From NCBI RefSeq assembly GCF_030684675.1, contig NZ_JAUXXZ010000066.1, forward strand, positions 18,728-82,727: DNA of 64,000 nucleotides. Direction: 5' to 3'. Positions 6,435 through 23,386 of the stretch are shown in pieces. The notes beneath the pieces were generated by a model that was given only the letters and a program-made list of their open reading frames with translations, ran no database searches and was not told where the DNA came from. Source of the stretch: Daejeonella sp. GTDB lineage: Bacteria > Bacteroidota > Bacteroidia > Sphingobacteriales > Sphingobacteriaceae. A program made the translations under genes and the position numbers. How positions within the stretch are numbered: position 1 is the stretch's first letter; each line of letters begins with the position of its first letter.

Positions 6435-6458
6435 CTTGAAAATTTTAGATAACATTAA

Positions 6459-9400
6459 TTAAAACCTTACAATTAAATTAACCCCAAACTCACGGGTTCT
6501 TGGAATTGTATTTGAGGACTGTCCCTGATTGTTACCGATAGTATAAGCAGATTCCGGATCAAAGTCAGTGATATGCTTGAAAAGAATAAATGGATTTCTG
6601 GCAACAAGTGAGATATCTGCTGACTGAATCTTCAAAGATTGCAGCTTACTAACAGGCAACCTGTAGCTAAGTACTGCGCTACGAAGTTTAATAAAATCAC
6701 CATCAAATACAGAAGTAGTGAGTGGGCTTAAACTAGCCTGGTTATTATAATAGGTATCTAACTGATCAACCGGCCATGTTTTAGTGAAAGGCAAACCTGC
6801 CTGATCAACTCCCGACACAGTTAAACCACTTTCTCTGCCCGGAAGTGTATTTTTCAATAATCCAAAGCGGTACATATAACGGCTTAGTCCTGACTGAACA
6901 ATATTTCCGAATTTAGCATCAAGAAGAACATTCAGGGAGAAGTTTTTGTACCTGAAATTATTGGTCAATCCCATCGTATATGGAGGAACGCCCTGACCAT
7001 ATTCTATCTCTGGACCTTGAACCTCATAACCACTAAGTTTGTTGTAAACACGAACACCGCTTGCATTGGTTAAATAAGTTCTTCCTCTGATAGTATTGTA
7101 GGGTCTTCCAACACCTGCTCCTCCAACGGTACTAAGTCCGGGTGCAAGTTTCAAAATCTCACTCTTGTTGTAGGCAGCATTATAGCTTACATCCCAGGTG
7201 AATTTATCTGACTTGATTGGAGTACCGGTTAATAAGATCTCTACACCTCTGTTACTTAATTCACCAACATTTAGTAATGCTGAAGTATAACCTGAAGATG
7301 CTGCAATTGAAGTACTCAGAATATCATCAGTTGTTTTACGGTTATAGTAAGTGAAGTCTAAACCTAAACGGTTATTCAGGAATTGCATATCGATACCCCC
7401 TTCATAGGTAGTTGAAGTAAGTGGTCTCAGATTCGGATTTGACAAAGCGGAAGAAGTACCCTGAACCGGACGACCTATATGACCTCCCTGCTCAAAAGTA
7501 TACAACTGATTGATCTGATAAGGATTTACAGTTGCACCTCCCACCTGTGCCCAGGAAGCCCTGATCTTTGCAAAACTAATTATTGATGGCAGCTTAATCG
7601 CATCAGAAAGAATGAAACTGGTTCCGAATGATGGATAAAAAATTGAGTTATTACCCGGATTTAGGGTTGAAAACCAATCCTGTCTTCCGGTAAAGGTAAA
7701 ATAAAGCAAACTCTTGTAACCAATATCTGCAGAACCGAATACTGAATTCTGTCCGAAACGGCTTAAACCTACAGTAGCAGATTGGATCGCAAGGTTGGAG
7801 AAACTGATAAAATCAGGAACAATGAATTCTGAACCGTAATTCGAAGTTGATTCAGCAACGTTCCGCTCAATATTTCCTCCTGCCATTGCAGTAAACTGGA
7901 AATCCTCGAAGAAGGTTTTATTGTAATTCAGCAAAGCCTGAGCAGTAGTTTTAGTTACAAATGAGGTTCCTGAATTAAACAATCCTCTAGGTCTTTTTGC
8001 AGTACCAATCGGCATATAATCCATAGACTGGAACCTGTCTATATCCCTCATTCCACTCACCTTTACAGATAAATCATCCAGAATATTGTACTGGATACTT
8101 GCCTGACCCATAAAACGGTTTTTGGCATCTGTATTCCCCATACGATTGATTACGAAATAAGGGTTCTGAGCCTCAGGAACCTGCTGCCATTGAACTTCAT
8201 TGAAATTGGCGTCATAACCAGGAGCCAGACTGCGGATATCCACTGTATTTGCCAACAGGTTTGTAGCCCATGAAGTGGTATTATCAGCATATCCATTTCC
8301 AGGGCGATTTTTTCCCTTCTCTACATTATATTGTAAGGTTGATTCAACAATAATCCTTTTACCTAGCACAGATCTCAAACTTACATTACCAGTCTGTCTG
8401 GCATAACTTGAACCTGGTTCCATTGCCTGAGCTTCGAGATCAGATAATGATACCCTGTAAGTAAGTGATGGTGAAGTACCTCCAGAAAATGCTATCGTAT
8501 TTGTTAAATTCGTGCTTGGCCTGTAGAAATTTTTCCAGTTATCTTTTACGTTAACCGGAGAATAAGGCCTCATAACTCCATCAAACTGGACATAAGGCTG
8601 TCCATCCATTTTAGCTCCAAAAGATAAACGACCGGAACTGATTGCCTGAGCTTTAGTGGTAGGCTTTACACCATCCAGACCCTGACCGTAGGTATATTGT
8701 AAATCAGGATACATTGAAGGACTACCAACTGTGAAATTGCTATTGAATTCTACTCCAATTCCTTTTTGGGCTTTTCCACTCTTGGTTGTAATCAAAATTA
8801 CACCATTCGATGCCTGGCTACCATATAATGCCGCAGCTGGCCCACCCTTCAAGACGTTAATTGTCTCAATATCATCCGGATTGATGGCAGCGATACCATC
8901 TCCACGGTCTAAGATTGTCGCTCCTTCACCTTGTGCCTGTGAACGAGCTGTATTGTTCATTGGCATACCATTAATTACATATAATGGCTGGTTGTTACCA
9001 CTTAATGAACCGTTACCTCTGATGATGACACGACTTGAACCACCAGGACCTGAAGACATACCTGTTACGTTTACACCGGCAATCTTACCGCTGAACGCGT
9101 TTGCCACGTTGTTCTCTCTTGCCTGGGTAAACTCTTCACCTTTCACCTCCGTTACTGAATAGGCCAGCGCCTTTTTCTCTCTGGAAATACCCAATGCCGT
9201 AACTACTACTTCTGTTAACGCTGTGTTGGCAGCCTCAAGTTTTACATTTAGTGTAGTTCTGTTGCCTACTGTAAGCTCCTGAGTTTGATAACCGATATAT
9301 GTAAAAACAAGTACGCTATTATTATCAGGAACATTAATTGTAAATCGTCCATCTAAATCTGTAGTTGCACCAATAGCTGTACCCTTCAGTTTTATACTTA

Positions 9401-9947
9401 CTCCCGGTAAAGTCTCGCCCTGTGCATCAGTAATCTGACCTTTAACTACAATATCTTTCTCTTCCAATAAGTCTGAAATGTTAATCAGATTGCTTTCAGG
9501 AACCATGACCGAAACAGTCCTTTTTAATACCAGTATTGTCTTATTCTTAATACTGAATTCTAAAGGCTGATCCTTAAATAATGAGATCAATACCTCAGAA
9601 AGATCCTCATTAACCGCATTTATGGTTACTGGCTTCGCTAAACTGATCAGTTCTTTCTGAAAGAAAAATCCATAACCCGTTTGTTTCTTAATTGAGGAAA
9701 AAACCTTCTCAATCGAAACATTTTCGCCGCTGTAGGTTACTTTTTGAGAGTATCCTTCTGCCCGAACATTTAAGATTATGGCTAAAAGTAAAATAAATGT
9801 CAGCTTCATGACAAGGAGAATTGGATTAAATGAAATCAACTGGCTTTTACTATACGTAAAGAATCGAATTCCGCCAGTAATTGTCGGCTTTAAGTCGAGA
9901 GTTGTAACACGACTTAGAGAGCCCTCTGTTTTAGTAAATAAATTCAT
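6459..9947 (-). CDS. susC: SusC/RagA TonB-dependent transporter with N-terminal STN signalling domain
   Basis: STN-like segment (VFSSIKKQTGYGFF), CarboxypepD-like domain, plug motif PLYVING..DIETINVLKGGPAAALYGSQASNGVILITTK, terminal F. Start uncertain (9971, 9947 or 9809). Confidence 0.93.
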   Translation of the reverse strand: MNLFTKTEGSLSRVTTLDLKPTITGGIRFFTYSKSQLISFNPILLVMKLTFILLLAIILNVRAEGYSQKVTYSGENVSIEKVFSSIKKQTGYGFFFQKELISLAKPVTINAVNEDLSEVLISLFKDQPLEFSIKNKTILVLKRTVSVMVPESNLINISDLLEEKDIVVKGQITDAQGETLPGVSIKLKGTAIGATTDLDGRFTINVPDNNSVLVFTYIGYQTQELTVGNRTTLNVKLEAANTALTEVVVTALGISREKKALAYSVTEVKGEEFTQARENNVANAFSGKIAGVNVTGMSSGPGGSSRVIIRGNGSLSGNNQPLYVINGMPMNNTARSQAQGEGATILDRGDGIAAINPDDIETINVLKGGPAAALYGSQASNGVILITTKSGKAQKGIGVEFNSNFTVGSPSMYPDLQYTYGQGLDGVKPTTKAQAISSGRLSFGAKMDGQPYVQFDGVMRPYSPVNVKDNWKNFYRPSTNLTNTIAFSGGTSPSLTYRVSLSDLEAQAMEPGSSYARQTGNVSLRSVLGKRIIVESTLQYNVEKGKNRPGNGYADNTTSWATNLLANTVDIRSLAPGYDANFNEVQWQQVPEAQNPYFVINRMGNTDAKNRFMGQASIQYNILDDLSVKVSGMRDIDRFQSMDYMPIGTAKRPRGLFNSGTSFVTKTTAQALLNYNKTFFEDFQFTAMAGGNIERNVAESTSNYGSEFIVPDFISFSNLAIQSATVGLSRFGQNSVFGSADIGYKSLLYFTFTGRQDWFSTLNPGNNSIFYPSFGTSFILSDAIKLPSIISFAKIRASWAQVGGATVNPYQINQLYTFEQGGHIGRPVQGTSSALSNPNLRPLTSTTYEGGIDMQFLNNRLGLDFTYYNRKTTDDILSTSIAASSGYTSALLNVGELSNRGVEILLTGTPIKSDKFTWDVSYNAAYNKSEILKLAPGLSTVGGAGVGRPYNTIRGRTYLTNASGVRVYNKLSGYEVQGPEIEYGQGVPPYTMGLTNNFRYKNFSLNVLLDAKFGNIVQSGLSRYMYRFGLLKNTLPGRESGLTVSGVDQAGLPFTKTWPVDQLDTYYNNQASLSPLTTSVFDGDFIKLRSAVLSYRLPVSKLQSLKIQSADISLVARNPFILFKHITDFDPESAYTIGNNQGQSSNTIPRTREFGVNLIVRF

Positions 9948-9954
9948 AAATTTG
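9947..9954 (+). promoter_or_regulatory. Candidate Bacteroidota sigmaA -7 element antisense to susC1
   Basis: TAAATTTG matches TAnnTTTG and overlaps the susC1 ATG at 9947. No clean -33 TTTG was seen. Confidence 0.5.
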
Positions 9955-9959
9955 CTTTG

Positions 9960-10043
9960 TTTGGTGGTCAATAATCTATCTCAATATTTTTTATTAGAAG
10001 ACCAGACTTTAGCCAGGAGCGCGTCAACGCTTCTGGTTTTTTT
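9960..10043 (+). ncRNA. Candidate cis-antisense sRNA in the susC1 leader
   Basis: Bounded by the + strand -7 element and a + strand hairpin with U-tract; the 5' end is estimated. Confidence 0.45.
10013..10043 (+). terminator. Intrinsic terminator on the antisense strand between fecR1 and susC1
   Basis: CCAGGAGCG-cgtcaa-CGCTTCTGG followed by T7; a G-U pair forms on + that would be a C-A mismatch on -. Confidence 0.65.
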
Positions 10044-10063
10044 CTGCCTTCTACTATTTCAGT

Positions 10064-11242
10064 TTAAGGCATAACGACAACCTCCTTCCCATCTAGTCTA
10101 AAGTGAATATTACTTTTCTGAAGTATTTCCAACACCTCCAAAAGGGTCAGATTTGTTGCTATGGCACCTTCAAAATGTTGTTCCGGTAACACCCCTTCAT
10201 ATCTGGCAGTTATCCCGTACCACCTGCCCAACTGACGCATAACTGTTTCGATACGGGCATTTTCAAAATAGAAATAACCATCTTTCCAGGCCACTTCAGC
10301 CTGAGTGTCCTTTCTTTGTATTCTGATATCCCTGTCAACCTTTGATTGCTCACCTGGTTTAAGTATTTGAGATTTTTTTGTATTTAATTCTATCACCCGA
10401 ACAGCTCCTTCAATCAGCGTAGTAGTAATAGAGGGCTCATCAGAATAGGCATTGATATTAAAATGAGTACCAAGCACTTCAACTGTCTGATTTCCAGACC
10501 GAACTGAAAATTTTTTATCATCATTCTTGGAGACTTCAAAATAAGCTTCTCCTTTTAGCTCAACCTCGCGTGTATCTCCGGCAAAAAACACCGGAAAACG
10601 CAAAGAAGAGGCAGAGTTCAGCCATACCTTACTGCCATCTGCCAGATTTAACTGAAATTTTCCGCCAACTGGTGTTTGAATGGTATTATACACTGTTTGA
10701 ATTTCTCTTTTCTCAGTTAATGACTGTTCATTAGCTGATTTACTGAGTGTATACTCAATGATACCTTTTGAATTCTTATGGATCTTGATTCCACCCTGAT
10801 TAATCAAAACCCCGTTTTGTGAATCATCCAATACAATCTTCTTTCCATCAGAAAGTGTGAGAATTGCTTTAATCCCTCCTGGCTGAATATCTTCTACTTT
10901 TTGCTTTGCAGCTACTTTTACAGGAACCGGAGCAGTTTGAATCTGATCATTCTTAAAATAGAAATACAATCCACTTGCCAGAAAAATGAGGATAGTGGCC
11001 GCTGCGGCCAGGGAAGAATATCTACGGTAAACAGGTACTTGCCTTTCTGCCAACTCAGGCAAATCAATTTTTGAAAAAATAAATGATTTCAGATTTTCCT
11101 CATCCTCCTGTGGGTCAAAATCCCATTCCGAATCCGTGTTCATTTCAGAGCGATACCACTGAAACAATTTTTCAGTTTCTTCAGCTGAAGCAGAGTTATG
11201 AAGATACTTTTCAACTAATTTTTGAATTTCTTCTCGTTGCAT
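10064..11242 (-). CDS. fecR: FecR-family anti-sigma factor
   Basis: One TM segment, LADGSKVWLNSASSL, LKGEAYFEV and VEVLGTHFN motifs; lies between an ECF sigma and susC. Confidence 0.92.
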   Translation of the reverse strand: MQREEIQKLVEKYLHNSASAEETEKLFQWYRSEMNTDSEWDFDPQEDEENLKSFIFSKIDLPELAERQVPVYRRYSSLAAAATILIFLASGLYFYFKNDQIQTAPVPVKVAAKQKVEDIQPGGIKAILTLSDGKKIVLDDSQNGVLINQGGIKIHKNSKGIIEYTLSKSANEQSLTEKREIQTVYNTIQTPVGGKFQLNLADGSKVWLNSASSLRFPVFFAGDTREVELKGEAYFEVSKNDDKKFSVRSGNQTVEVLGTHFNINAYSDEPSITTTLIEGAVRVIELNTKKSQILKPGEQSKVDRDIRIQRKDTQAEVAWKDGYFYFENARIETVMRQLGRWYGITARYEGVLPEQHFEGAIATNLTLLEVLEILQKSNIHFRLDGKEVVVMP

Positions 11243-11339
11243 AGATCACCGTTTTAGGCTTATATACTATATAGTGCCATAAGTCGACAAGCACCCTTGC
11301 AAAAAATGAAAAAAGATTTAACAGAAAATTTACATGAAC

Positions 11340-11897
11340 TTAAAAGAGGAACAAATTCATTGCATTCTTGAGATTCAGACGAATGATCTTCAAGCCTTTT
11401 GTGAGATAGCCTTCTACAGTTTTCTTGGAAATACCAAGCTCCATTGAGATTTCAGTTGTAGATAGGCCATAATTACGACTGTAGTTAAATACCATTCTGC
11501 AGTTCTCAGGCAGGTCTTCAACCACTTTATTAATATACTCCTGAATAAACCGGGTATCAATTTGCTCCTCAGTGAGAGTAGACAATTCATCCGCAACGTT
11601 ATGAGATTCTATCTCCAGTCTTCTTTTCTGTTTATAAATTAGTTTGAATACAGAAAATCTGACGGCGGAACCAAGATAGGTATTAAGGTATTCAATATTC
11701 AGTTCGGCTTGTCTGGCCCATAATTTGGCAAATATTTCCTGAACAATATCCTGTGATACAGATTTATCCTTACTAAAAGTGTAGGCTATTGCCAGCATCT
11801 GTTTCCAGTATCTATTATAGATTTCTGTAAACGCTCCCTGGCTGCCTTCTTTTAAATACTCAAGTAATTCTTTATCAGATGAGGACTTATAGTTCAA
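11340..11897 (-). CDS. ECF sigma-70 factor (Bacteroides expansion type)
   Basis: Region 2 (AFTEIYNRYW..DIVQEIFAKLW) and region 4 (LPENCRMVF..EISMELGISKKTVE). Confidence 0.92.
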   Translation of the reverse strand: MNYKSSSDKELLEYLKEGSQGAFTEIYNRYWKQMLAIAYTFSKDKSVSQDIVQEIFAKLWARQAELNIEYLNTYLGSAVRFSVFKLIYKQKRRLEIESHNVADELSTLTEEQIDTRFIQEYINKVVEDLPENCRMVFNYSRNYGLSTTEISMELGISKKTVEGYLTKGLKIIRLNLKNAMNLFLF

Positions 11898-11951
11898 GAT
11901 ACCTTCAATTATACAAGTCCAATATAGGAATATTCAATTACAAAATACTCC

Positions 11952-11990
11952 AAAAAAAAATCATGATTTTATTTGAAATCATGGTTTTTT
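11952..11990. terminator. Probable bidirectional terminator between the SelA-like gene 12037 and ECF1
   Basis: AAAAAATCATGATTT / AAATCATGGTTTTTT inverted repeat with A/T tracts on both sides. Confidence 0.6.
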
Positions 11991-12036
11991 ATCGATAAAC
12001 CTCAAAAAACCGGGCAATTATGCCTCAAAAAACAAG

Positions 12037-13701
12037 CTAAATCAAAAAATTACCTCCCTGTGGTCTTCCTTTTGGATAAATTACAGGCTTTTTGACAATT
12101 TCAGATTTAGTTCTTTTGGCGCTAAACTTTGCCGAAAGAAATTCATGCATATCTATTTCTCCGAAAACCGATTCAGCACTGACTATACCTTTAAATGTGG
12201 TTTGAATCCTATCACCCGGTATCACCCAGGTACTTTGCATTTTAATCTCATTCCCTTCAATTGTCCCATTTATTTCACGCTCCGAAAAATCAGATATGTG
12301 AACTCCTGAAAAATAATTTCCGTCCTGCCGGTCAATAAACAGATGTTGCTTATCAAGACTATTATAAAACTGCACTTCCAGATTCCAGCGTCCCAGCATA
12401 TTTACGGATGGAGCCTTCATTGCCACAATGGGTTTCGGACTTCTTTTCCTTGCAATAACCTCCCTAATACGGGATGCGGCGATCTTATCATCTCCGGGAA
12501 CCATCATATATCCTACCAAACTGATTCCGGTCAGACCAGGTTCATCTCTATAGATGGCAACCCCAACTCGTGGAAAGGTATTTCCCAATTCTTCAGAAAC
12601 CTCCTGACCAGTTACATGAAGTTCATCCGGATTCCAGGTTATAAATAAATAAGGTGTTACATGATGTATCAATTTCGGGTCGGGCATTCTGATACGATAA
12701 CTAACCCCCTTCACTGTTGCAGCCTGCTTTCCAATATTTTCGAGCCAGTTTACCCAGTTTTGCATCTCCTTTTTATGATCCATCCCTACCCAGGTTTCTA
12801 CTGCTGCAAGCATGCCGATATGTTCTTCGCGGGCCACTTTGTTATCACGACCAGGACCATGATGTGGGGCTGCAGCCTGCCATGTAGACATCAACAGATC
12901 CTTTCTTCCTAATAAAAGTCCGCAACTGCCGGGAGCCTTAAGGCCCTTTCCACCACTAAAAGCAACCACGTCAGCTCCTCTCGATAAATGATCATTCGGA
13001 AATGTAAGAATGTGCGCAGCAGCATCAACAAAAACCGGAACATTTAAAGGTTTAGCGATTTTTGAAATAATCTCAAGTGGCAAAAAAGATTCCTTTTCAG
13101 CATCTATATAAATCATGGCTGTTTTCGGACCAATTTTCTTCCTTAGATCTTCTTCATTCTCAACAGTAATAATTGTAGCTCCTGTACTTCTTATAGCCTG
13201 ATCATAAACTGTGCGTGAAGCTTTTGGAATGATAACCTCTGTTTTTTCGAATCCCCTCAAATCAGGCATTCGGACTAGTTTTTCGGGATTACCGCCTGAT
13301 AAACATGCGAAAGTACAAAGCTTAATTCCGGCCGCTGCACCAGAAGTTACCAGCCCCCACTCTGCTCCCGTCAACTCTGCAAGGCGCTTACCTACTCCCT
13401 CTACCAATTCATCCATCTGCACATTCAGGGTAGAAACAGCCTCCATAGCCAATCTCACTTCTGGTCTTGCCACCGAACCACCCATGATTGTATTTGTACC
13501 TTTGCAATTGATAAAAGGTTCAACCCCAATAGACTTTAAAATTTTGTGTCCTCTTTCGGCAAGTTCAGCATCCGGAGTTTTCGAAACTCCGGATAAAAAA
13601 GCAAATCCATTTTTACTCTGAGATGCTTCACTCTCCAACACTGATGCGTTTGAAGCAAAAGGGAGCAGGGTCAGGCCCTTAATTATATCTCTGCGTTTCA
13701 T
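12037..13701 (-). CDS. SelA/DgaE-like PLP enzyme, long form with extra C-terminal beta-rich domain, Tat signal
   Basis: MKRRDIIK; INCKGTNT.MGGS, VDAAA and SGGKGLKAP motifs; about 130-aa C-terminal extension. Confidence 0.85.
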   Translation of the reverse strand: MKRRDIIKGLTLLPFASNASVLESEASQSKNGFAFLSGVSKTPDAELAERGHKILKSIGVEPFINCKGTNTIMGGSVARPEVRLAMEAVSTLNVQMDELVEGVGKRLAELTGAEWGLVTSGAAAGIKLCTFACLSGGNPEKLVRMPDLRGFEKTEVIIPKASRTVYDQAIRSTGATIITVENEEDLRKKIGPKTAMIYIDAEKESFLPLEIISKIAKPLNVPVFVDAAAHILTFPNDHLSRGADVVAFSGGKGLKAPGSCGLLLGRKDLLMSTWQAAAPHHGPGRDNKVAREEHIGMLAAVETWVGMDHKKEMQNWVNWLENIGKQAATVKGVSYRIRMPDPKLIHHVTPYLFITWNPDELHVTGQEVSEELGNTFPRVGVAIYRDEPGLTGISLVGYMMVPGDDKIAASRIREVIARKRSPKPIVAMKAPSVNMLGRWNLEVQFYNSLDKQHLFIDRQDGNYFSGVHISDFSEREINGTIEGNEIKMQSTWVIPGDRIQTTFKGIVSAESVFGEIDMHEFLSAKFSAKRTKSEIVKKPVIYPKGRPQGGNFLI

Positions 13702-13756
13702 AAATTAAGAATTTTGTCTAAATATTTTTTAGGCTAATGAGCATTTAATTATAAAT

Positions 13757-15031
13757 CTATTTTGATTCTATTTTTGTGGCACCGCGTCCATTTAAATCCC
13801 ATACAATTTTTCCTGCCCGGATGGTAAGCTCTGTTTCCAGTTTTTGACTGCCTTTCAAAACGAAACCATGTGAATCAATAAATCCAAAATCCCCATTTTT
13901 AACATTTAAAACAGCAATATCTGCCTCTGCACCAGGGCTTAAATGCCCAAGTTCAGGCCTTTGAATATATTGTGCAGGATTCCAGGTGGACTTTAAAATA
14001 ACATCGTTTAGAGACATCCCCATATTCAGGAATTTTGACATGATGTTATTCATATCTTTCATTCCTGCATTCATATTTCCAATATGAAGATCGGAACTGA
14101 TTGAATTAGGATACAGTCCCTGTTTAAGTGAGGGCATTGCCTGAGAGAATACGAAACCGTTACCACCGTGACCAACATCAAATATAATTCCTCTGTTTTG
14201 TGCATTGAAAATGTATTGTTTAACCCTTCCATTTTGATCAACCAGAGCTTCCTTATAAAATGGTGCTGTTGGCGACCGCGTACCTGCATGGTACATATGG
14301 GTTAAAATATCCCCCGGCCTCAGGTGTTTCATCAAAAGTCGCTCAAAGGAGTTTGATGGAGGCATTCCTCTCCAATCGATCATTACAGGTCTTTTTGAAA
14401 GCTTGCCGGCCATCACCGCACTATCGACCGGAATTGACTGCAGTCCATTGTAATGAGCTACCTTGAAACCCACAATATCATCCTTATAATATTCGGCAAA
14501 ACGGGCAGCCATTACCGGGCTCATGTCTGTTGAATCCTGTTCATTGGCACCCATCCCATCACCCACTATATTTAAAAAGGCTAGAACCCGGGTTTTAGAC
14601 TGATCTATAATATTCTTTTTGAACAGGGGGAATGACCTCCATCCTGAACTTCCTGCATCTACAACCGTAGTAACACCTGCCCTTAAAGTAAAGCCATCCG
14701 GAGGAAGCGAGTTCGGCCCATCCATATAATGCTGCTCCTTATTGGTTCCGGCAAATACATGAACATGAATATCAATAAGTCCCGGAGTAACGTATAAACC
14801 TTTAACATCTATTACTTTTTTGGCAGACGAGGCAGGAATATCCGCTGCAACACGAACTACTTTGCCCTGATTAATGGCAAGATCCATTTTCTCATTGATC
14901 TTGTTCTTCGGATCAATCAGATGACCACCTTTAAGTAAAATATCATAAGTCTGGGCATGTAATATTGCACTCATGCTCAGTAAAATTCCTGTCAGGAAAG
15001 GAAGGAAAATGCGAAAAATTTTGAGATTCAT
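13757..15031 (-). CDS. Amidohydrolase/deacetylase-family metallohydrolase (COG3964-like), Sec signal
   Basis: PGLIDIHVH, KVAH, RPGDILTH, FDVGHG and ISSDLH motifs; signal peptide ending LHA-Q. Confidence 0.88.
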   Translation of the reverse strand: MNLKIFRIFLPFLTGILLSMSAILHAQTYDILLKGGHLIDPKNKINEKMDLAINQGKVVRVAADIPASSAKKVIDVKGLYVTPGLIDIHVHVFAGTNKEQHYMDGPNSLPPDGFTLRAGVTTVVDAGSSGWRSFPLFKKNIIDQSKTRVLAFLNIVGDGMGANEQDSTDMSPVMAARFAEYYKDDIVGFKVAHYNGLQSIPVDSAVMAGKLSKRPVMIDWRGMPPSNSFERLLMKHLRPGDILTHMYHAGTRSPTAPFYKEALVDQNGRVKQYIFNAQNRGIIFDVGHGGNGFVFSQAMPSLKQGLYPNSISSDLHIGNMNAGMKDMNNIMSKFLNMGMSLNDVILKSTWNPAQYIQRPELGHLSPGAEADIAVLNVKNGDFGFIDSHGFVLKGSQKLETELTIRAGKIVWDLNGRGATKIESK

Positions 15032-15176
15032 AGATTGATTTTGAGATTAATAAGGTAATTATTTTACATTTTAATATTTAGCAAGATTTGTAACGAATCA
15101 GGTACTGTTAAAATTAGCTTCAATTTTTAATTAATAGAGTGGACTCCTGATCGAATCACAAATTCGAAAAATCAAT

Positions 15177-15226
15177 ATATAGATAAAATTGATAACAAAA
15201 TAATATAATATAGATATGATTGATAA
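15177..15226. repeat. Imperfect 19-bp direct repeat with 31-bp periodicity in an intergenic region
   Basis: ATATAGATAAAATTGATAA (15177-15195) versus ATATAGATATGATTGATAA (15208-15226), two mismatches. Confidence 0.55.
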
Positions 15227-15330
15227 TAAGATTCCTATCCGAAAAAGATACTCAATGCCGATTATAAATAACTAAAAGAAGGGCATGATTATCAGGCCCC
15301 GGCTCACAAAACCATACCCTGATACATCTT

Positions 15331-15804
15331 TTAGATATAGGCAATTGCATCTATTTCAACTATCGTATCTCCAGGAATACCGCCTTTTGCAACAGCAACT
15401 GTAGTACGGGCAGGCGGCTTACTTCCGAAACGGCCTTTATATACTTCATTCATACCCTGGTAATCTGCAAAATCATTCAGATAAACATTTACTTTTAAAA
15501 CCTTTTCCATAGAAGAACCTGCTTTAATAAGCTCATCCTCAATTCGTTTTAATACAATCTCCGTATGATTTTTGATCTCAAATGGCGCAGTGTGTGCTCC
15601 CTTTCCGGAAACATAAACCATGTTACCATGTTTGGTATAACTCGAAAATAATGGCACGTCCTGAAACTCTGTAATCTTTCCAACTTCCTTTTCAGGAGAA
15701 GAGATTGGTGCATTCGCATTTGCAGCCATACCAAATCCAGCAACACCTACAATAGAGGCAAATAATTTCTTTAATACTGATCTTCTTTCTGTTTTCATTT
15801 TCAT
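15331..15804 (-). CDS. ridA: RidA/YjgF-family enamine/imine deaminase with Tat-like signal
   Basis: VYVSG, KVLKVNVYL, PARTTV (catalytic Arg) and VEIDAIA motifs; N-terminus TERRSVLKK plus hydrophobic stretch and ANA. Confidence 0.85.
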   Translation of the reverse strand: MKMKTERRSVLKKLFASIVGVAGFGMAANANAPISSPEKEVGKITEFQDVPLFSSYTKHGNMVYVSGKGAHTAPFEIKNHTEIVLKRIEDELIKAGSSMEKVLKVNVYLNDFADYQGMNEVYKGRFGSKPPARTTVAVAKGGIPGDTIVEIDAIAYI

Positions 15805-16031
15805 TTTTATTTTGAATAGTTAATAATTATTTCCAGAATTTTTCCTTTACATAATCAAACTCTCTAGAAATGTTGAATAAACTAATATAAAGTTTTCTTC
15901 AGGTTATCAATCACTGAGAAATCAGAACCAACTGATTATCAAAAATTTACTCAATAAAAATGCCCTGATCTTTTAGCCTAAGCCCTTGTATTATTGGCCA
16001 AATAATTCTCCTTAAAATGCACTGTCAAATA

Positions 16032-17687
16032 TTAACTTGACTGTGGCCGGTGTTTTGGATAATTAATGGGCTTTTTATTCTGAGAGTATTTGTGCTTTTT
16101 AGCTGTGAATTTGGCAGTATTAAACTCATCAAAATCCATCTCGCCTGCTAAAACACCAGAATTAATACTTCCCTGCATTGTGGTCAGAATTCTGTCTCCC
16201 GGCACATTATAATTACACAAGATTTTTACCTCATTTCCATCAATGCTCCCGGAGAAAGGGCGACTTGAAAAATCTGATTTAAAAATACCGGTAATCCAGT
16301 TTCCATCCTGATTATCTATGAATAAATGCTGGGTTACTTTGCTACTGTAGTATTCAACTTCCATATCCCATTGCCCAACCATATTCATCACCGGATTTTT
16401 CATTGCGGGTATAACTTTAGGCTGCCTTTTCCTCGATAAAACTTCATGGATACGATTTGCTGCCACTTTATCATTTCCCTCAATCATCATATACCCCACC
16501 AGGGTAATACCCGTAAGTCCGGCTTCATCTTTGCCAACCTGAACTGCAATTCGAGGAGCAATTGTTCCAAGTTCTTCAGCAACATCCTCACCGGTGACAT
16601 GCAGTTGTTCAGGATTCCACCTGATGTGGAGGTATGGAGTAACATGGTGAATCAATTCCGGATCAGGCCTGGTAATCGTTGTTTTAATCCCATTGATAGT
16701 TGACACCTTTTTGTTGATTGTTTCAAGCCAGGATACCCAGGTGTTCATTTCTTTCAAGTGGTCAAGCTTAACCCATGCTTCAACTGCTGCCAGCATTCCT
16801 ATATGCTCTTCCCGTCCAACCTTATTGTCTCTCCCAAAACCATGGTGCGGTGAATTTACCTGATGGGCAGACATCAGGAGATCTTTCCTGCCTAAAATCA
16901 ATCCCGAACAACTTGGTGCTTTTATTCCTTTTCCACCACTGTAACCTACTACATCAGCTCCCTGAGCTAAATGAACATCCGGAATGGTAAGAATATGAGC
17001 AGCAGCATCAACAAAGACAGGAATATTTAAAGGCTTTGCAATTTTTGAAACACTTGAGATTGTAAATTCATCTTCCGAAGGCGTCATATAAATCATTGCC
17101 GTCCGGGAATTAATACTTCTTTTTAATTCATCAAGACTTTCAACGGTGATTACTTTTACACCGGCATTTCTGACCGCATGATCATAAACATTTCGGCAAG
17201 ATAGCGGAATGATTACCTCAGATTTTGCAAATCCGGTCAGATCCGGAATTCTCAACAATTTCTCCGGATCCCCACCTGTCAGACAGGCCGCAGTAACCAT
17301 CTTGATACCGGCTGCGCAACCTGCTGTAACAATACCCCATTCAGCTCCTGTCAGTTCTGCTAACCTTTTCCCAATCCCAAAAGCCAGTTCATCCATCTGA
17401 ACATTCAGGGTAGAAACAGACTCCATCGCTAATCTGACTTCTTTCCTCTCGATAGAACCACCCATAATTGTATTAGTACCCTTACAATTCACAAAAGGCT
17501 CAACACCGATAGATTTTAGTAAACTTTCACCCTTTTTTACAAGTTCTTCATCAATTACTCTTGAAACTTCCTCTAAATGATCCTGGATTCCATTAATATT
17601 GAAAGAACTCTCGTTCATTGGTGCAGCAACAGCACTCCCGGCAAAAGGCAATAAGGTCAAGCCCTTAATTATTTCTCTTCGTTTCAT
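16032..17687 (-). CDS. SelA/DgaE-like PLP enzyme, long form, Tat signal
   Basis: MKRREIIK; SGGKGIKAP; closely similar to 12037..13701. Confidence 0.85.
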   Translation of the reverse strand: MKRREIIKGLTLLPFAGSAVAAPMNESSFNINGIQDHLEEVSRVIDEELVKKGESLLKSIGVEPFVNCKGTNTIMGGSIERKEVRLAMESVSTLNVQMDELAFGIGKRLAELTGAEWGIVTAGCAAGIKMVTAACLTGGDPEKLLRIPDLTGFAKSEVIIPLSCRNVYDHAVRNAGVKVITVESLDELKRSINSRTAMIYMTPSEDEFTISSVSKIAKPLNIPVFVDAAAHILTIPDVHLAQGADVVGYSGGKGIKAPSCSGLILGRKDLLMSAHQVNSPHHGFGRDNKVGREEHIGMLAAVEAWVKLDHLKEMNTWVSWLETINKKVSTINGIKTTITRPDPELIHHVTPYLHIRWNPEQLHVTGEDVAEELGTIAPRIAVQVGKDEAGLTGITLVGYMMIEGNDKVAANRIHEVLSRKRQPKVIPAMKNPVMNMVGQWDMEVEYYSSKVTQHLFIDNQDGNWITGIFKSDFSSRPFSGSIDGNEVKILCNYNVPGDRILTTMQGSINSGVLAGEMDFDEFNTAKFTAKKHKYSQNKKPINYPKHRPQSS

Positions 17688-17868
17688 CAGTTTATTTTTA
17701 TGGTTTTTATACTGTGCGGGATGGAAATTTTTATGATTAAAATTAACAGTCGCTAAGAATTTTTATGTTTATTTTAATTATACCAGATTAATTTAAGAAT
17801 CAATAATATATGTACTAAAAAAATCCTTCCAATTTTAGGTCATCTTATTTAATGTTTTTTATATTGTA

Positions 17869-19110
17869 TTACCACCTGAATTGATTTCCTTCACGAAAGA
17901 AATTATTCAGTGGCGTTGCAATCCCATTCAAATCATAGACGATCCTGCCTCCCTTGATGGTCATTTCGCATTCAAACTTTTTATTGCCTGTCATTTTAAA
18001 ACCTGCAGTCTCATAAAAACCAAACTTCCCTTCCCGCAGACTGAATACCACCAGATCAGCAATTGCTCCGGGTGAAAGATGCCCAAGTTCTTCCCGTTTA
18101 ATTGCTTTTGCCGGACTCCAGGTGCTTGCTTTTATTATCTCCTTCAAACTCATTCCCATGGCCAGAAATTTAGACATTACATTCATCATATCCTTCATGA
18201 ATGCATTAGTACTTCCGGCAGATAGATCAGTACTGATTGTGTTTGGCAAAAAACCGGCTTTCATTGCAGGGATGGCATTTGAATACCTGAATGCAGAACC
18301 ATGACCAACATCGAAAATTACACCCCGTTTCTGGGCTTCCGGGAAGGCTGGTTTGATTAAAGAGCTTTGCTGGTCAACAATCATATCCCGGGCATTGATA
18401 TCTTCAATGATGGTATAGGTATGCGTGTAGATATCACCTGGCCTCATGTGTTTGGTAAATAAGTCTCTAAGTGATGGATATGGATGATTACGACCACCAT
18501 CCAGCATGATTGGCATATTGGCAATATTGCCAGCCTCAACTCCACGGTCTACCGCTGTCCAGTCGGGTCCAACGAAATCAACTTTAAAACCGACGATGTC
18601 TTTATTAGCTAAAGCAAGTTTAGCCGACTCGGAAGCAATTTTATCCCCTGTACTCTTTTCGTTTGCACCACCTTTATAATCTCCTCCCCTAATATTCAAA
18701 AAAGCCAGAACCCGGGTAGTTGATTTATCAATAATCTGCTTTTTGAAATTAGCAAAGGATTCATAATCAGAATCTCCGGCATCGACAATGGTTGTAACCC
18801 CAACCCTGAAAGTATAACCATCAGGAAGGGTAGAGCCCAGACGTGAATGAATATCAATTAAGCCTGGTGCAACGTACATTCCTGCAGCATCTACCACCTG
18901 AGTGGCCTGATCAGCATTAATATTTTTTGCAATTAATGCTATTCTGCCATCATTGAGGGCAACATCCAGTACTTCATCAATATTATTTTTGGGATCAATT
19001 ACATGCCCGCCCTTGATAATTATCCCATAGACCTTACTGATTTGCTGTGCGGATAATGAAAGACTGCATAGCCAAAGGGCCAGAACAAATAAGTGCTTTA
19101 GTTTAAACAT
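17869..19110 (-). CDS. Amidohydrolase-family protein (COG3964-like) with degenerate HxH motif, Sec signal
   Basis: Same scaffold as its paralogues but PGLIDIHSR replaces HxH and KVDF replaces KVAH. Confidence 0.8.
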   Translation of the reverse strand: MFKLKHLFVLALWLCSLSLSAQQISKVYGIIIKGGHVIDPKNNIDEVLDVALNDGRIALIAKNINADQATQVVDAAGMYVAPGLIDIHSRLGSTLPDGYTFRVGVTTIVDAGDSDYESFANFKKQIIDKSTTRVLAFLNIRGGDYKGGANEKSTGDKIASESAKLALANKDIVGFKVDFVGPDWTAVDRGVEAGNIANMPIMLDGGRNHPYPSLRDLFTKHMRPGDIYTHTYTIIEDINARDMIVDQQSSLIKPAFPEAQKRGVIFDVGHGSAFRYSNAIPAMKAGFLPNTISTDLSAGSTNAFMKDMMNVMSKFLAMGMSLKEIIKASTWSPAKAIKREELGHLSPGAIADLVVFSLREGKFGFYETAGFKMTGNKKFECEMTIKGGRIVYDLNGIATPLNNFFREGNQFRW

Positions 19111-19119
19111 TGCGCAAAA

Positions 19120-20145
19120 TTATCTTTTAAGTGGGACTGCATTTTTTGTGATATAATCATCCTGATTTGAATGGAGCGGGCCAATGTAATGGAATCGTTC
19201 TGCCCATTCCAGACCATATTTTTCACCAATTTTCTTGTCAGAGGGGGCAAATCTCAATCTGGGGGATTCAATATCCAGAACGAAATGCTTGATATAATTA
19301 AAATCAGCAGTCCTGTCATCATCCCCAAGAATAGGAAGGCTTTTACCCTCAGCGGCCAGTTTCTTCCTGAGTATTGATCCGTTATTACCTGCAGGGCCCT
19401 GAGTGACATTAACCATGTTAGATTCGACTTTTTTATCTATGTACTTTGAGATATCTACAATTCTATTGACATATTGCGGACCTCTTCTGGTAAAGAAATA
19501 TCTTTCAGCAACGCTATGTGGCTTAACAAGATCCAAGTGTTCAGGATAATCGAGATGACTGGCTGCCGGAGTAATGGCTGCTTCAACTGCACGACCAGTG
19601 ATATAATGATCAGGATTATTTTCATAAGGCGCCCAGGGGTCATAACATATAACCGTATCAATCTTCAGCATTCGGATTAAAAAGATCATTCTGGCTTTGA
19701 TTTCCTGAATGTTATTCTCATCCATATTATGATTCCTGTAATTCAGGTGATAGGTTTTTTTTAAGCCCAGAACCCTTGCAACCGCCTCAGTATCAGCTTC
19801 ATTATTGGCTACTACTTCACCATAATTTTTTCCGCTTCCGGCGGCATCGTCATTAGTGGTTCTGATCAGGTAACCGGTATAACCTTCATCAATTAATTTG
19901 GCTACAGTTCCCCCTGCAAAAATTGGAATGTCATCGCAGTGCGGCTGAATTACTGCTAAAACTTTCCCCTGATGGGGCTTGCCACTGACCGGCCGCTCAA
20001 TGATCACCTCATCAAAAACCGTTTCATTATCATTTTTATCAATTGGCACTGCTTCTTTGTTGTTAATAGCTGCAACAGTAGCTCCCGGAACCAATAAGGC
20101 ACCGCTGGTAGCCAGTGTTTTCTCTAAGAAATTTCTTCTCTTCAT
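19120..20145 (-). CDS. PIG-L/LmbE-family deacetylase, Tat signal
   Basis: QPHCDD (HxDD) and NPDH motifs; the likely start MKRRNFLEK is a strong Tat motif (the ORF track starts at 20175). Confidence 0.85.
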   Translation of the reverse strand: MKRRNFLEKTLATSGALLVPGATVAAINNKEAVPIDKNDNETVFDEVIIERPVSGKPHQGKVLAVIQPHCDDIPIFAGGTVAKLIDEGYTGYLIRTTNDDAAGSGKNYGEVVANNEADTEAVARVLGLKKTYHLNYRNHNMDENNIQEIKARMIFLIRMLKIDTVICYDPWAPYENNPDHYITGRAVEAAITPAASHLDYPEHLDLVKPHSVAERYFFTRRGPQYVNRIVDISKYIDKKVESNMVNVTQGPAGNNGSILRKKLAAEGKSLPILGDDDRTADFNYIKHFVLDIESPRLRFAPSDKKIGEKYGLEWAERFHYIGPLHSNQDDYITKNAVPLKR

Positions 20146-20776
20146 AATAAAATGTTTTAACCAAGGACAATTCAATGCCTGACATTTATCATTCTAATTA
20201 AATGGTATTTACGTTAAACAATTTCGACAAAAAAATATTGATTTCTAATTTATTTTAGATTTTACCTTAATAAGGTCCCGTCATACTATGAACAGTGGAA
20301 AGGATCACATTCAACCTGAGTATAGAATTATGGATTATGTATTCCCAATCCAATAAAAATGCTTGTATTGCATAATCCCAACTTATCAAAAAGAGATGAT
20401 GGTTGAAAACACCTAATGTAATATTTGATCTAAAATTGCCTAAAGGCCTGTGATCTTTTATCAGTAATCAAAAGTATAATTGAGAATTTTGATTGCCTGA
20501 AGATTATAAATATAAAACTGCATCAAACAGTTGAAAGAAAAAATAGATTACCCAATACTTATAAAAAAAGATTTTAATACTTATACCTATTTGAGCATTA
20601 ATAAATCAATATTGAAACTCAAATAAATTTAATTTACAATCTTTTAGTTAAAATGTTTTGACTTTTAACTTGGAAAAATGATTCTATAGATTCTGTTTCC
20701 GGATATTAATCATCCTTTTAAAGCTTTGGAAATTTATTAAGCAAAAGTTCAAAAAAGCCATAGGAAGGGTTATTGC

Positions 20777-21910
20777 CTAAAATTGTATCAAGCAGGTGAC
20801 TGCTGGTACAGTTATTTGTTCTCCTGTAGGCCTAAGTTTACCAGTTTTATTATTTCTTTCGAAAACTACTACATTATCTGTATTTTGATTTGCGGTTAAA
20901 GCATATTCTCCTTTTTTATCAATCATAAAATTTCGTGGATGTTTACCACCTGTGTTTTCATGACCCACTAAAGTAAGCATGCCATTCTTTGGATTCACCT
21001 CATAGATAACAAGACTTTCGTGCCCACGATTTGAAGCATATAAAAATTTTGCATCGGGGGAAAAATGAATATCTGCTGCAGAATTCCTTTCAACAAAGCC
21101 TTCGGGGCGCATATTTAGACGTTCTAAAGCTTTTAGTTCCCCAGTCCTTTTATTAACAAGGAAAGAAGCGACGGTTGATGATATTTCTTCAGCAGAGTAA
21201 GCAAATTTACCATTGGGATGTATTTTGAAATGTCTTGGCCCTGAGCCGGGAGTATTCTTTACAAATGGAACCACTGCAGAGCTAAGTTTGCCATTTTCAT
21301 TTACCTTGTATATCATAATTTTGTCTATGCCAAGATCCGATACATAAAGGAACCTACCATTATGTGATGGAATTGCTGAATGTATATAGGATCGCTCCTG
21401 CCGTCCTACAACAATACTGCTACCCGTATGCTTGATAAAATCAGAGGCTTTAGCTAAGGACCCATCCTTGTTTATTGGGAAAACAGATAATGAGCCATCT
21501 CCATAGTTTGAAACATAAGCAAATCTGCCTTTGGGATCTACGCTTATGTGTGCTGGGCCCCTCCCACCGCAAGATTGCTCATTAAGCTTGGTTAATAACC
21601 CGCTTTGAGCATCAATATTAAATGACATGACACTCCCATTGCCATCAGACAATGTACCCTTACTGTAAATGGAATACAAGATTTTATTATCAGGGCTTAG
21701 AGCTAAAAAACCTGGGCCGGTACCCTCAGTAACTGTTTGCAACTCCTTAAATTTCCCCTGAAGTCGGTCAAATTCGAACACATATATACCTTTACTGCCT
21801 CTAACCGAGGAAGTACCAGCATATATAATATCTCTTAAAGGTAATTGAGCTGAAATATCTTTAACAATCAAAACTATGAGAAGGGCAAGAAAAATAATTT
21901 TTGTTTTCAT
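20777..21910 (-). CDS. Lactonase, 7-bladed beta-propeller (Pgl/YbhE-like), Sec signal
   Basis: GPAHISVD, VSNYG, DLGID, GSGPRH, SNRGH and GKHPRNF motifs; signal peptide ending ISA-Q. Confidence 0.88.
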   Translation of the reverse strand: MKTKIIFLALLIVLIVKDISAQLPLRDIIYAGTSSVRGSKGIYVFEFDRLQGKFKELQTVTEGTGPGFLALSPDNKILYSIYSKGTLSDGNGSVMSFNIDAQSGLLTKLNEQSCGGRGPAHISVDPKGRFAYVSNYGDGSLSVFPINKDGSLAKASDFIKHTGSSIVVGRQERSYIHSAIPSHNGRFLYVSDLGIDKIMIYKVNENGKLSSAVVPFVKNTPGSGPRHFKIHPNGKFAYSAEEISSTVASFLVNKRTGELKALERLNMRPEGFVERNSAADIHFSPDAKFLYASNRGHESLVIYEVNPKNGMLTLVGHENTGGKHPRNFMIDKKGEYALTANQNTDNVVVFERNNKTGKLRPTGEQITVPAVTCLIQF

Positions 21911-22106
21911 TGTGCATATGATTGAATTCCTTTAATGTATTCCTATTATTAGCTTTTAATGTTATTTAATCGATTTCTCCAACTGCTCAAATACCTCCGG
22001 CTCGGTGAATTTATCTTAAAAAATATTGCTAATTCGACTCATAAAATAGTCCGCTTCAATAATCAAAGCACAAGACCTTAATAGTCAAGACCAAATGAGC
22101 AAAAAA

Positions 22107-23357
22107 TCAATCCGGGATACTAATACCATTAAGATCCCAAACTATATTACCAGCACGAATAGTAAGTTCAGCTTCAAGTTTTTGAGTTCCTTTCACTTTA
22201 GTTCTCCTGACATCAGTAAAACCGAAATCGCCATTCCTTACGCTGAATATCGCTACATCTGCCTCCGCTCCAACAGATAAATTACCCAAATCTTCCCTTT
22301 GTATTTGCTTTGCAGGAGTCATTGTAGTTAGTTTAAAAACAGTTTGCAGATCCATCCCCATAGCCATGAATTTTGACATTACATTCAAAAGATCTTTCAT
22401 GGCAGCATTCTTACTTCCATTATTAAAATCAGTACTAATGGAATTTGGAACAAAACCCTGTTTTAATGCAGGTACAGCCTGAGAAAATGCAAAAGCACCT
22501 GCTCCATGACCCACATCGAAAATTATTCCGTTCTTTTGAGCTTCAATTACAAATGGCTTAAGTTTACCATTTTCGTCAACAATTGTTTCTCTGCTAGAAG
22601 CCCCTCCGGCAAAAGTATGAGTGAATATATCACCAGGACGGAGATGCCTTGTAAATAGCTCTTCAATAGATTGTGGAGGACTATGCTCTCCAAAATCAAC
22701 CATGACCGGCATATTTACAATCTTACCTGCTTCAACAGCCCGGTCAACAGAAATCCAGTCGCCACGTTTATAGTGAGATACCTTTATACCAATTATATAT
22801 TCCTTGTTTTTCTTTACCGACATTGCCGTCAGAGTTGCATCCATATCACCAGTATTCTGCTCCCAGGGTTCCCTGCCAAGGTACCCTTCACCAACAATAT
22901 TCAGCCAGGCAAGTACCCTTGTCCTGGACCTGTCGATTGTGTGAGCTTTAAAAGCATTAAAAGATTTCCATCCAGAGCTTCCGGCATCAATTGATGTAGT
23001 GACACCTGTTCTAAATGTAAAGTCGTCGGGCATTGGATCGCCTTTTCTTTCTTCAGATATGCCGGCAAAATGATGGGCATGCATATCAATTAATCCCGGG
23101 GTTACGTATAAGCCCTTCGCATTAATAATCCTTTTGGCAGAATTTACGGGAATATTGGCGACAACCTGAGAAATCTTCTTACCAGTAATTGCTACATCCA
23201 TTATAGAATTGATATTATTTTTAGCGTCAATGACATGACCACCCTTTATTAAAATATCTATCTGCTGAGCCTTAGTTACTGTTAATCCCACTGCAAAAAA
23301 TATCATAATTGTCATTAAGCAGGAATTACTATATTTCTTTAATCCATTCATTTTCAT
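22107..23357 (-). CDS. Amidohydrolase/deacetylase-family metallohydrolase (COG3964-like), Sec signal
   Basis: PGLIDMHAH, KVSH, RPGDIFTH, FDVGHG and ISTD motifs; signal peptide ending TKA-Q. Confidence 0.88.
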   Translation of the reverse strand: MKMNGLKKYSNSCLMTIMIFFAVGLTVTKAQQIDILIKGGHVIDAKNNINSIMDVAITGKKISQVVANIPVNSAKRIINAKGLYVTPGLIDMHAHHFAGISEERKGDPMPDDFTFRTGVTTSIDAGSSGWKSFNAFKAHTIDRSRTRVLAWLNIVGEGYLGREPWEQNTGDMDATLTAMSVKKNKEYIIGIKVSHYKRGDWISVDRAVEAGKIVNMPVMVDFGEHSPPQSIEELFTRHLRPGDIFTHTFAGGASSRETIVDENGKLKPFVIEAQKNGIIFDVGHGAGAFAFSQAVPALKQGFVPNSISTDFNNGSKNAAMKDLLNVMSKFMAMGMDLQTVFKLTTMTPAKQIQREDLGNLSVGAEADVAIFSVRNGDFGFTDVRRTKVKGTQKLEAELTIRAGNIVWDLNGISIPD

Positions 23358-23386
23358 TTTGATTAATATTGATTTTAATTGAGTAA

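Follow-up and report, generated by a model that had tools for sequence, protein, structure and literature searches.

The RidA family, whose members include Salmonella RidA, Escherichia coli TdcF, Pyrococcus horikoshii PH0854, and Bacillus subtilis YabJ, has so far been known for cytoplasmic damage control around dehydratases that depend on pyridoxal 5′-phosphate (PLP). The main survey of the family describes fusions of three RidA domains (3x-RidA) and leaves signal peptides, secretion, and the periplasm unmentioned (PMC4433059). Here, we analyzed a stretch of 64,000 nucleotides from Daejeonella sp. (contig NZ_JAUXXZ010000066.1, positions 18,728 to 82,727; referred to as the window), which contains a Rid-family gene at 15331..15804, on the minus strand like all other features of the window discussed below. 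Our best reading, which we consider probable, is that this gene encodes an enamine/imine deaminase with a cleavable twin-arginine translocation (Tat) signal, which would be exported to the periplasm and work there with adjacent, Tat-exported PLP enzymes related to Salmonella DgaE.

Parts of this arrangement are known from other systems. In the ong cluster of Pseudoalteromonas prydzensis, growth on N-acetylglucosaminic acid (GlcNAc1A) requires each of the genes ongB (deacetylase), ongC (PLP-dependent deaminase), and ongD (RidA). OngC, a fold type III enzyme, makes 2-keto-3-deoxygluconate from the amino-aldonic acid; what OngD contributes was left open (PMC9537276). For Salmonella DgaE, it has been described that His163 protonates C3, after which the imine is released, and that an H163A mutant gives free enamine at high concentration. 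The authors argued that the His is retained to avoid a cytotoxic enamine, called the His162/His163 dyad strictly conserved in DgaE sequences, and placed Arg226 at the α-carboxylate of the substrate (PMC9529869).

Rid proteins have also been paired with enzymes that produce imines outside the cytoplasm. The Chlamydomonas protein LAO2/RIDA works with LAO1, an L-amino-acid oxidase (LAAO) of the periplasm (PMC10805672), and Gluconacetobacter diazotrophicus and other bacteria carry clusters of genes for an LAAO, a cytochrome c, and RidA, for which a Tat signal was reported on the oxidase and not on RidA (PMC5053998). These systems share with our locus the combination of an extracytoplasmic imine-producing enzyme and a Rid protein, but the partner is a flavin-dependent amino-acid oxidase rather than a PLP lyase, and the alga is a eukaryote. 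A search of the full-text literature for exported, periplasmic, or Tat-linked bacterial RidA proteins found no description of one; its matches were the Chlamydomonas case and cytoplasmic Rid proteins beside Tat-exported partners (nicotine NdhAB and the Gluconacetobacter LAAO). The view of RidA as a cytoplasmic protein, on which the original prediction for this DNA had relied, has a known exception in the alga.

The product of 15331..15804 is 157 aa long when read from the first ATG, or 155 aa if translation begins, as is probable, at 15798. It consists of an N-terminus with the sequence MKMKTERRSVLKKLFASIVGVAGFGMAANANA, followed by a Rid domain. PF01042 matches residues 53–156 with 75.3 bits (gathering cut-off 27.3; E 5e-21), and the catalytic domain was placed at residues 45–155 (15334..15666) by alignments to PH0854, to other solved Rid proteins, and to the canonical RidA of the same genome. 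Among the 37 RidA-family proteins of the PDB that match the product, PH0854 is the best (E 1.5e-15), and in this alignment PPAR lies opposite KPAR and VEIDAIAY opposite IEIEAIAY. Arg131, within PPARTT (codon 15406..15408), also pairs with the Arg of FPARET in the genome's own canonical RidA and is the counterpart of RidA Arg105, while Glu148 (codon 15355..15357) is the counterpart of RidA Glu120. Both are invariant across the Rid subfamily. The catalytic Arg (PARTT) and conserved Glu (VEI) that had been picked out from the letters alone thus align as expected.

An AlphaFold2 model of the product, made as a monomer from an alignment that included the divergent Rid paralogs of the genome, had confidence values (pLDDT) of 88–96 for residues 51–155, whereas residues 1–46 had low values and were unstructured. 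In a Foldseek search of the PDB, all top 50 matches of the model were Rid/YjgF proteins, with TM-scores of 0.64–0.85 relative to the target, in agreement with the chorismate-mutase-like fold (β-α-β-α-β-β) of the family. The best of these were RidA/YjgF structures (TM-scores of 0.75–0.85 on the target, root-mean-square deviation 1.5–2 Å over ~111 residues). Rid-family proteins are homotrimers, with their active sites at the subunit interfaces.

Several features weigh against a function identical to that of RidA. The score for TIGR00004, which describes the RidA subfamily, is 67.8 against a cut-off of 106.25; in comparison with canonical RidA, 6 residues are deleted from the loop after the SG motif; and a Phe is found at the position of RidA Tyr17. 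For these 3 reasons, the substrate or even the reaction could differ from that of RidA, and we filed the protein under a diverged Rid subfamily and not under RidA. Of the original label, membership of the Rid family was retained and the identification as canonical RidA was dropped. The same features could be taken to mean that the protein has the Rid fold without being a deaminase, and is instead a noncatalytic or differently catalytic subunit, for example one that stabilizes its PLP-enzyme partner or binds a ligand; in the same vein, the part that OngD plays in the ong pathway was not established by biochemistry (PMC9537276). However, neither the Arg that defines deaminase-competent Rid proteins (RidA, Rid1–3) nor the conserved Glu varies within the subfamily, and the best matches in both sequence and structure are proteins of the RidA subfamily, which makes the nondeaminase explanation quite unlikely. 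By its sequence, 15331..15804 is a Rid-family member with a deaminase-type Arg, belonging to a diverged, predicted exported subfamily, and this subfamily probably works like RidA. It shares with the described members of the RidA family the fold, the carboxylate Arg and the Glu, and a genetic link to the β-eliminating type of PLP enzyme. Besides the low score, the deletion, and the Phe, it differs from them by a Tat signal, a linker of ~15 residues, and its predicted periplasmic location.

Since homologs are nearly all 153–155 aa long and begin with MKTERR, the true start of the gene is probably the second ATG, at 15798. Read from there, the leader is MKTE-RR-SVLKK-LFASIVGVAGFGMAA-NA/N, with the slash at the predicted cleavage point: T-E-R-R-S-V-L-K-K, which conforms to the S/T-R-R-x-F-L-K type of motif in Tat signals, is followed by a Gly/Ala-rich hydrophobic region (h-region) and then by A-x-A. 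The predicted Tat signal peptide covers residues 1–28 (MKTERRSVLKKLFASIVGVAGFGMAANA; 15715..15798), with the codons of the twin arginines (RR) at 15781..15786, and was assigned on the conservation of RR and A-x-A, the codon-position pattern, and hydropathy. A variable linker of ~15 residues separates it from the mature Rid core. Cleavage by signal peptidase is predicted at A26-N27-A28, before N29. An alternative site, A28-N29-A30, would leave Pro at +1, which signal peptidase I disfavors, so cleavage after A28 is likelier.

The Rid fold by itself does not require Tat, as Rid proteins are cofactor-free and the genome encodes further Rid paralogs whose signals are of the Sec or lipoprotein type. 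The N-terminal extension could thus be something other than a cleaved Tat signal, in which case the protein would be cytoplasmic, held by an uncleaved membrane anchor, or exported by Sec. The conservation of the leader argues against this. Of the 120 best database homologs, 119 retain RR, and in 86 orthologs from the genomes of other species RR is present without exception, followed by Ser or Thr at +1 (85/86), by hydrophobic residues at +2 and +3, and by KK (81/86). Ala is found at −3 (A26) in 78 of these orthologs and at −1 (A28) in 84, and Lys is frequent in the c-region. An extension of ~30 aa with RR, as first described ahead of the Rid core, thus corresponds to a conserved leader of 28 residues.

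The pattern of substitutions is that of a coding sequence. Pairwise differences at codon positions 1, 2, and 3 were 0.21/0.09/0.30 in the n-region, 0.33/0.19/0.67 in the h-region, and 0.16/0.10/0.57 in the Rid core; as the pattern in the leader resembles that in the core, the leader is translated and under purifying selection. Translation is also supported by the 41 of 86 orthologs that have no ATG between RR and the fold; in 6, this interval is free of start codons altogether. We considered a start within the leader, at Met24 (counted from 15798), which would bypass it, and rejected this: the position is occupied by Leu in 39 of the 86 orthologs and by Met in just 12, and substitutions in the leader show coding selection.

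Tat signals are usually distinguished from Sec signals by the lower hydrophobicity of their h-region. The peak hydropathy over 10 residues is 2.15 in the Rid leader, within the range of the RR leaders of the locus (1.66–2.15) and below that of its Sec-type, non-RR leaders (2.2–3.75). TatC (PF00902, 214 bits) is encoded in the same genome, on contig C27, and all presumed pathway partners carry export signals as well. With these observations, an extension that is not a cleaved Tat signal becomes very unlikely. The leader is, judged from its conservation, a Tat-type signal, and the Rid protein is very probably exported by Tat, probably in an already folded state.

The nearest upstream neighbor of the Rid gene (16032..17687) encodes a long DgaE-like PLP enzyme of 551 aa with an RR leader (MKRREIIKGLTLLPFAG), as recognized by TIGR01437 (124.6 bits) and by its similarity to DgaE (PDB 7LC0). 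It ends 227 nt upstream of the Rid gene on the same strand. No terminator-like site was found in this gap, sigma-70-like matches within it were at chance level only, and the exact Bacteroidetes motif TAnnTTTG was absent from it; across the window, the motif occurred 52 times versus 72 expected, showing no enrichment. The claim that the Rid gene lies immediately downstream of a PLP enzyme was therefore correct, and the two genes are, from this arrangement, likely to be co-transcribed. The order of a long PLP gene followed by a Rid gene occurs twice in the window. In the second instance, the third of the long DgaE-like PLP enzymes, which also has an RR leader (33404..35065), is encoded directly upstream of a second Rid paralog with a Tat leader (MKSTRRSVITSLF; 32890..33357; PF01042, 67.9 bits), which is 52% identical to the first.

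Gene neighborhoods in other genomes and species were counted for 50 loci whose sequence spanned 12 kb or more. A gene for a DgaE/SelA-like PLP enzyme was found within 10 kb of the Rid gene in 38 of these, and directly adjacent to it in 23. By our own estimate, based on ~20 such genes in 4.25 Mb, a random 20-kb window would contain one with a chance of ~9%. The survey of Tat-leader Rid genes and SelA-like genes that the original prediction had called for thus found them together in most of the long loci. Other frequent neighbors were genes for an amidohydrolase (35 loci), an SGL lactonase (28), an RraA-like aldolase (24), an SBF-family symporter (19), and a small cytochrome c (14). The copy of the RraA-like aldolase in the Daejeonella genome bears a Sec signal.

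The 12 loci without a PLP gene within 10 kb count against a dedicated link between the Rid protein and PLP enzymes. In these, the Rid gene is flanked by an SGL lactonase gene and a gene for a small cytochrome c, in the order pyrroloquinoline quinone (PQQ) dehydrogenase-cytochrome c, SGL lactonase, Rid, small cytochrome c. This would suit a Rid protein that mainly serves the module of PQQ/cytochrome c dehydrogenase and lactonase, either by hydrolyzing an imine from amine dehydrogenation or by some other Rid-type reaction on an oxidized sugar, and whose link to PLP enzymes is secondary. In line with such a role, an SGL lactonase is present in 28 of the 50 loci, all but 1 of the 50 contained a PLP gene or the lactonase/cytochrome pair, a further locus of the same genome (on contig C47) likewise has its Rid gene between a lactonase and a cytochrome c, and one report contains in vitro results in which Rid proteins accelerate the reaction of D-arginine dehydrogenase (PMC5619798). 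On the other hand, PLP genes are the commoner partner and are often the immediate one, and the 2 modules occur together in 17 of the 50 loci as well as in the window, which fits one pathway better than two. Moreover, PQQ enzymes of the glucose/sorbosone dehydrogenase (GSDH) type are known as sugar C1 dehydrogenases and not as amine dehydrogenases. We consider it unlikely that the PQQ module is the main client of the Rid protein.

The conserved Tat-type leader, the presence of TatC, the exported neighbors, and the linkage in 38 of 50 loci together provide computational support for the proposal that a periplasmic Rid protein works with exported PLP lyases, and we regard an imine/enamine deaminase coupled to an exported PLP lyase as the probable function. 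Co-export, as originally proposed, holds in the sense that all of these proteins carry export leaders. It does not hold in the sense of hitch-hiking, which was set aside, as the Rid protein and each of the PLP enzymes have an RR leader of their own.

What the PLP enzymes do is less certain. The closest solved relative of 16032..17687 is Salmonella DgaE (PDB 7LC0, E 2e-26). Its scores are nonetheless far below the cut-offs of the corresponding family models (TIGR01437, 124.6 versus 385.3; NF047797, 116.9 versus 600), so that even the type of reaction is one that we infer, which further weakens the case for a coupled deaminase. In the alignment with DgaE, the PLP lysine motif of the family (S-G-x-K) is kept as S-G-G-K in all 20 exported paralogs of the genome, and Arg226, which contacts the α-carboxylate, is kept in 16032 and 12037, that is, in 2 of the 3 long forms. 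None of the long forms has a His in the loop that matches the His162/His163 dyad, and this loop differs in the short forms; the comparison is one of sequences in a flexible loop and not of structures, a caveat that also bears on the proposed coupling. Likewise, no counterpart of Arg301, which is part of the phosphate-binding cluster of DgaE, was found in the exported paralogs aligned with it.

The 4 PLP genes of the window (12037–13701, 16032–17687, 33404–35065, and 907–2118) all encode enzymes without His162/His163 and Arg301 that have kept the PLP lysine, and the long forms have a region of ~180 aa beyond the part that aligns with DgaE, for which no Pfam match was found. DgaE is further set apart from these enzymes by its cytoplasmic location and its phosphorylated substrate, which is delivered by the phosphotransferase system, whereas the enzymes of the window have Tat leaders. 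We infer that the exported PLP enzymes would act on nonphosphorylated 2-amino-3-hydroxy acids, which is consistent with a compartment without ATP. As they lack the His that protonates C3 before release in Salmonella DgaE, they would be expected to release an enamine/imine, which the dedicated Rid protein would hydrolyze.

A pathway can be proposed in which these activities are combined. Its steps are drawn from annotation, on top of the gene content, signals, and residue conservation that were observed directly. The substrate would be imported by a SusC/SusD pair under the control of an extracytoplasmic function (ECF) sigma factor and its anti-sigma factor, after which the cytochrome c-fused PQQ dehydrogenase would oxidize it and the lactonase would open the resulting lactone. 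A PIG-L de-N-acetylase and amidohydrolases of the PRK09237 type would strip N-acyl groups. The resulting 2-amino-3-hydroxy acid, perhaps glucosaminate or a different amino-aldonic acid, or else another β-hydroxy D-amino acid, would then undergo PLP-dependent α,β-elimination, and the enamine/imine released by the lyases would be hydrolyzed by Rid to a 2-keto-3-deoxy acid and ammonia. This would make the pathway faster and shield the periplasmic PLP enzymes from attack by the enamine. The dehydrogenase, the lactonase, and the de-N-acetylases would fit the conversion of an amino sugar to an amino-aldonic acid; we propose an amino-sugar acid as the substrate only tentatively.

By analogy, the locus would be an exported counterpart of the cytoplasmic OngB/C/D module. 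The two have in common the logic of a deacetylase, a PLP deaminase, and a Rid protein, as well as a linked TonB-dependent outer-membrane transporter. They differ in that a cytoplasmic location is predicted for the Ong enzymes, with OngD, at 127 aa, too short to have a leader; in that OngC has fold type III and the PLP enzymes here a SelA/DgaE-like fold type I; and in that export signals are found on all enzymes of the present locus, which also includes genes for a PQQ dehydrogenase and a lactonase. The aldolase and the symporter that are found in related loci and in the C47 locus of the same genome would fit cleavage of the keto-deoxy acid in the periplasm and uptake of pyruvate. This leads to a fuller, doubtful reading, in which a complete phosphorylation-free route for amino sugars would run in the periplasm, by way of PQQ/cytochrome c dehydrogenase, lactonase, deacylases, the His-less lyase, Rid, an exported RraA-like aldolase, and pyruvate symport by an SBF-family protein. 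Free enamine from the His-less DgaE-like lyase would then make the Rid partner obligatory. If true, bacteria would here provide their first example of RidA-type metabolite damage control outside the cytoplasm, and likewise of a PLP-dependent deamination pathway in the periplasm.

Short of this fuller reading, the results suggest that some soil and groundwater Bacteroidota also operate, in their periplasm, a deamination pathway known only from the interior of cells. An exported Rid protein tied to Tat-exported PLP lyases would imply PLP-dependent elimination chemistry in the periplasm, and with it a problem of reactive enamines, in many environmental Bacteroidota. The gene content points to uptake and periplasmic mineralization of N-acylated amino (sugar) acids, which would bear on the turnover of carbon and nitrogen in soil and groundwater. 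The tie between the Rid protein and the PLP lyases would also give an entry point to the functions of a large group of genes that lack annotation, which in this genome alone comprises ~20 PLP, ~25 amidohydrolase, and 15 Rid genes.

The genes surrounding the Rid gene form a continuous run on the minus strand (907..35065), which includes 2 units of ECF sigma factor, FecR, SusC, and SusD. Also encoded are 3 long (~550 aa) and 1 short (403 aa) DgaE/SelA-like PLP enzymes, 4 amidohydrolases/deacetylases of the PRK09237 type, a PIG-L de-N-acetylase, a lactonase, a cytochrome c-fused PQQ dehydrogenase, a CBM9-like protein, a 432-aa protein, and the 2 Rid proteins with Tat leaders. Every soluble enzyme of the locus has an export signal. 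RR leaders are found on the 4 PLP enzymes, the 2 Rid proteins, the PIG-L deacetylase, and the 432-aa protein, and Sec-type leaders on the amidohydrolases, the lactonase, the cytochrome c-PQQ dehydrogenase, and the CBM9-like protein.

Directly downstream of the Rid gene lies a gene for an amidohydrolase/deacetylase of the PRK09237 type with a Sec-type signal (13757..15031; NF006689, 418 bits, cut-off 371), followed by that for the second long DgaE-like PLP enzyme, which has an RR leader (12037..13701; assigned by family profile, alignment, and leader). Beyond the upstream PLP gene, another amidohydrolase/deacetylase with a Sec-type signal is encoded at 17869..19110 (domain profile and leader), next to the PIG-L (LmbE) de-N-acetylase (19120..20145; PF02585, 70.9 bits). 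The mechanically called open reading frame of the latter (19120–20175) opens at a TTG; its RR leader, MKRRNFLEK, begins at an internal ATG 10 codons further on, which is the likelier start. These are followed by a 7-bladed lactonase (20777..21910; PF10282, 370 bits) and an amidohydrolase (22107..23357; domain profile and leader), both with Sec signals, and by the cytochrome c-fused PQQ dehydrogenase of the glucose/sorbosone type, which has a signal peptide (23387..24958; PF07995, 341.6 bits, plus cytochrome c domains).

The ECF-sigma/FecR/SusC/SusD units define 2 loci, at 907–11897 and 12037–35065, and no glycoside hydrolase is present among the enzyme genes annotated in them. The substrate transported by these 2 SusC/SusD loci is suggested to be something other than an ordinary polysaccharide. 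The gene for the 432-aa protein (3481–4779) directly follows a SusD gene; the protein has an RR leader (MKRRELIKYLSVLPVSG) and no Pfam match, and 4 paralogs with 36%–40% identity are encoded elsewhere in the genome, 3 of them in tandem on contig C7 and one on contig C62.

A pattern scan of species-representative genomes found the Rid subfamily in at least 549 of them. Its carriers are Sphingobacteriaceae (with Daejeonella the nearest), Chitinophagaceae, environmental Bacteroidales, and Prolixibacteraceae. Among them are the cultured strains Daejeonella rubra DSM 24536 and Pedobacter westerhofensis DSM 19036, as well as Mucilaginibacter straminoryzae RS28 and Ginsengibacter hankyongi BR5-29. 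The distribution is patchy, with 5 of 301 evenly sampled Bacteroidota genomes having the subfamily at E <= 1e-40. Among sequencing runs, the sequence of the Rid gene itself was found only in DNA metagenome runs from groundwater and sediment; the genome itself derives from a groundwater metagenome. Taken by its sequences, this is a widespread but patchy, uncharacterized Rid subfamily with predicted export, encoded within fully exported loci for deacylases, PLP lyases, and sugar oxidation.

Exported Rid proteins, as recognized by their leader sequences, extend beyond this subfamily. Of the 150 best cluster representatives from a search of the full library, a simple classifier called 32 Tat-like and 36 Sec- or lipoprotein-like. 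Many of the 150 are triple-Rid proteins of ~400 aa with Sec or lipoprotein signals, and the GC-rich exported Rid sequences among them probably come from other phyla. Four database proteins of ~270 aa (P0024, P0026, P0028, and P0031) have an MKTERRS Tat leader followed by 2 tandem Rid domains of the same subfamily as 15331..15804.

The 4.25-Mb Daejeonella genome itself contains 15 genes with a Rid domain, of which 4 have no signal, 6 have RR leaders, and 5 have Sec or lipoprotein leaders. Its canonical RidA, encoded on contig C35, is among those without a signal and has the highest PF01042 score of the genome (137 bits). Mostly clustered with the Rid paralogs are ~11 long and 9 short DgaE/SelA-like genes and ~25 genes for amidohydrolases of the PRK09237 type. 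The C47 locus (35000–52000) is a fuller version of the Rid/PLP module. On one strand, it encodes an FG-GAP protein, a cytochrome c-PQQ dehydrogenase, a long DgaE-like enzyme, a PAP2-like protein, a cytochrome c, an SGL lactonase, a Rid protein with a Tat leader, a further cytochrome c, a second GSDH-like protein, an RraA-like aldolase with a Sec signal, and an SBF symporter. One of the 5 Rid genes with Sec or lipoprotein leaders, on contig C80 (82195–83232), encodes a triple-Rid fusion of ~400 aa with a Sec-type signal and 3 tandem Rid domains, in effect a single-chain trimer. Finally, a second Rid subfamily with a Tat leader (MKRREILKSLTILPLAG...) is encoded at C3:45135 and at C4:135144 and C4:135700. 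The C3 copy lies near genes for a BNR/sialidase-like protein and an FAD-dependent oxidoreductase, and the C4 copies form a tandem pair beside a gene for a GntR regulator.

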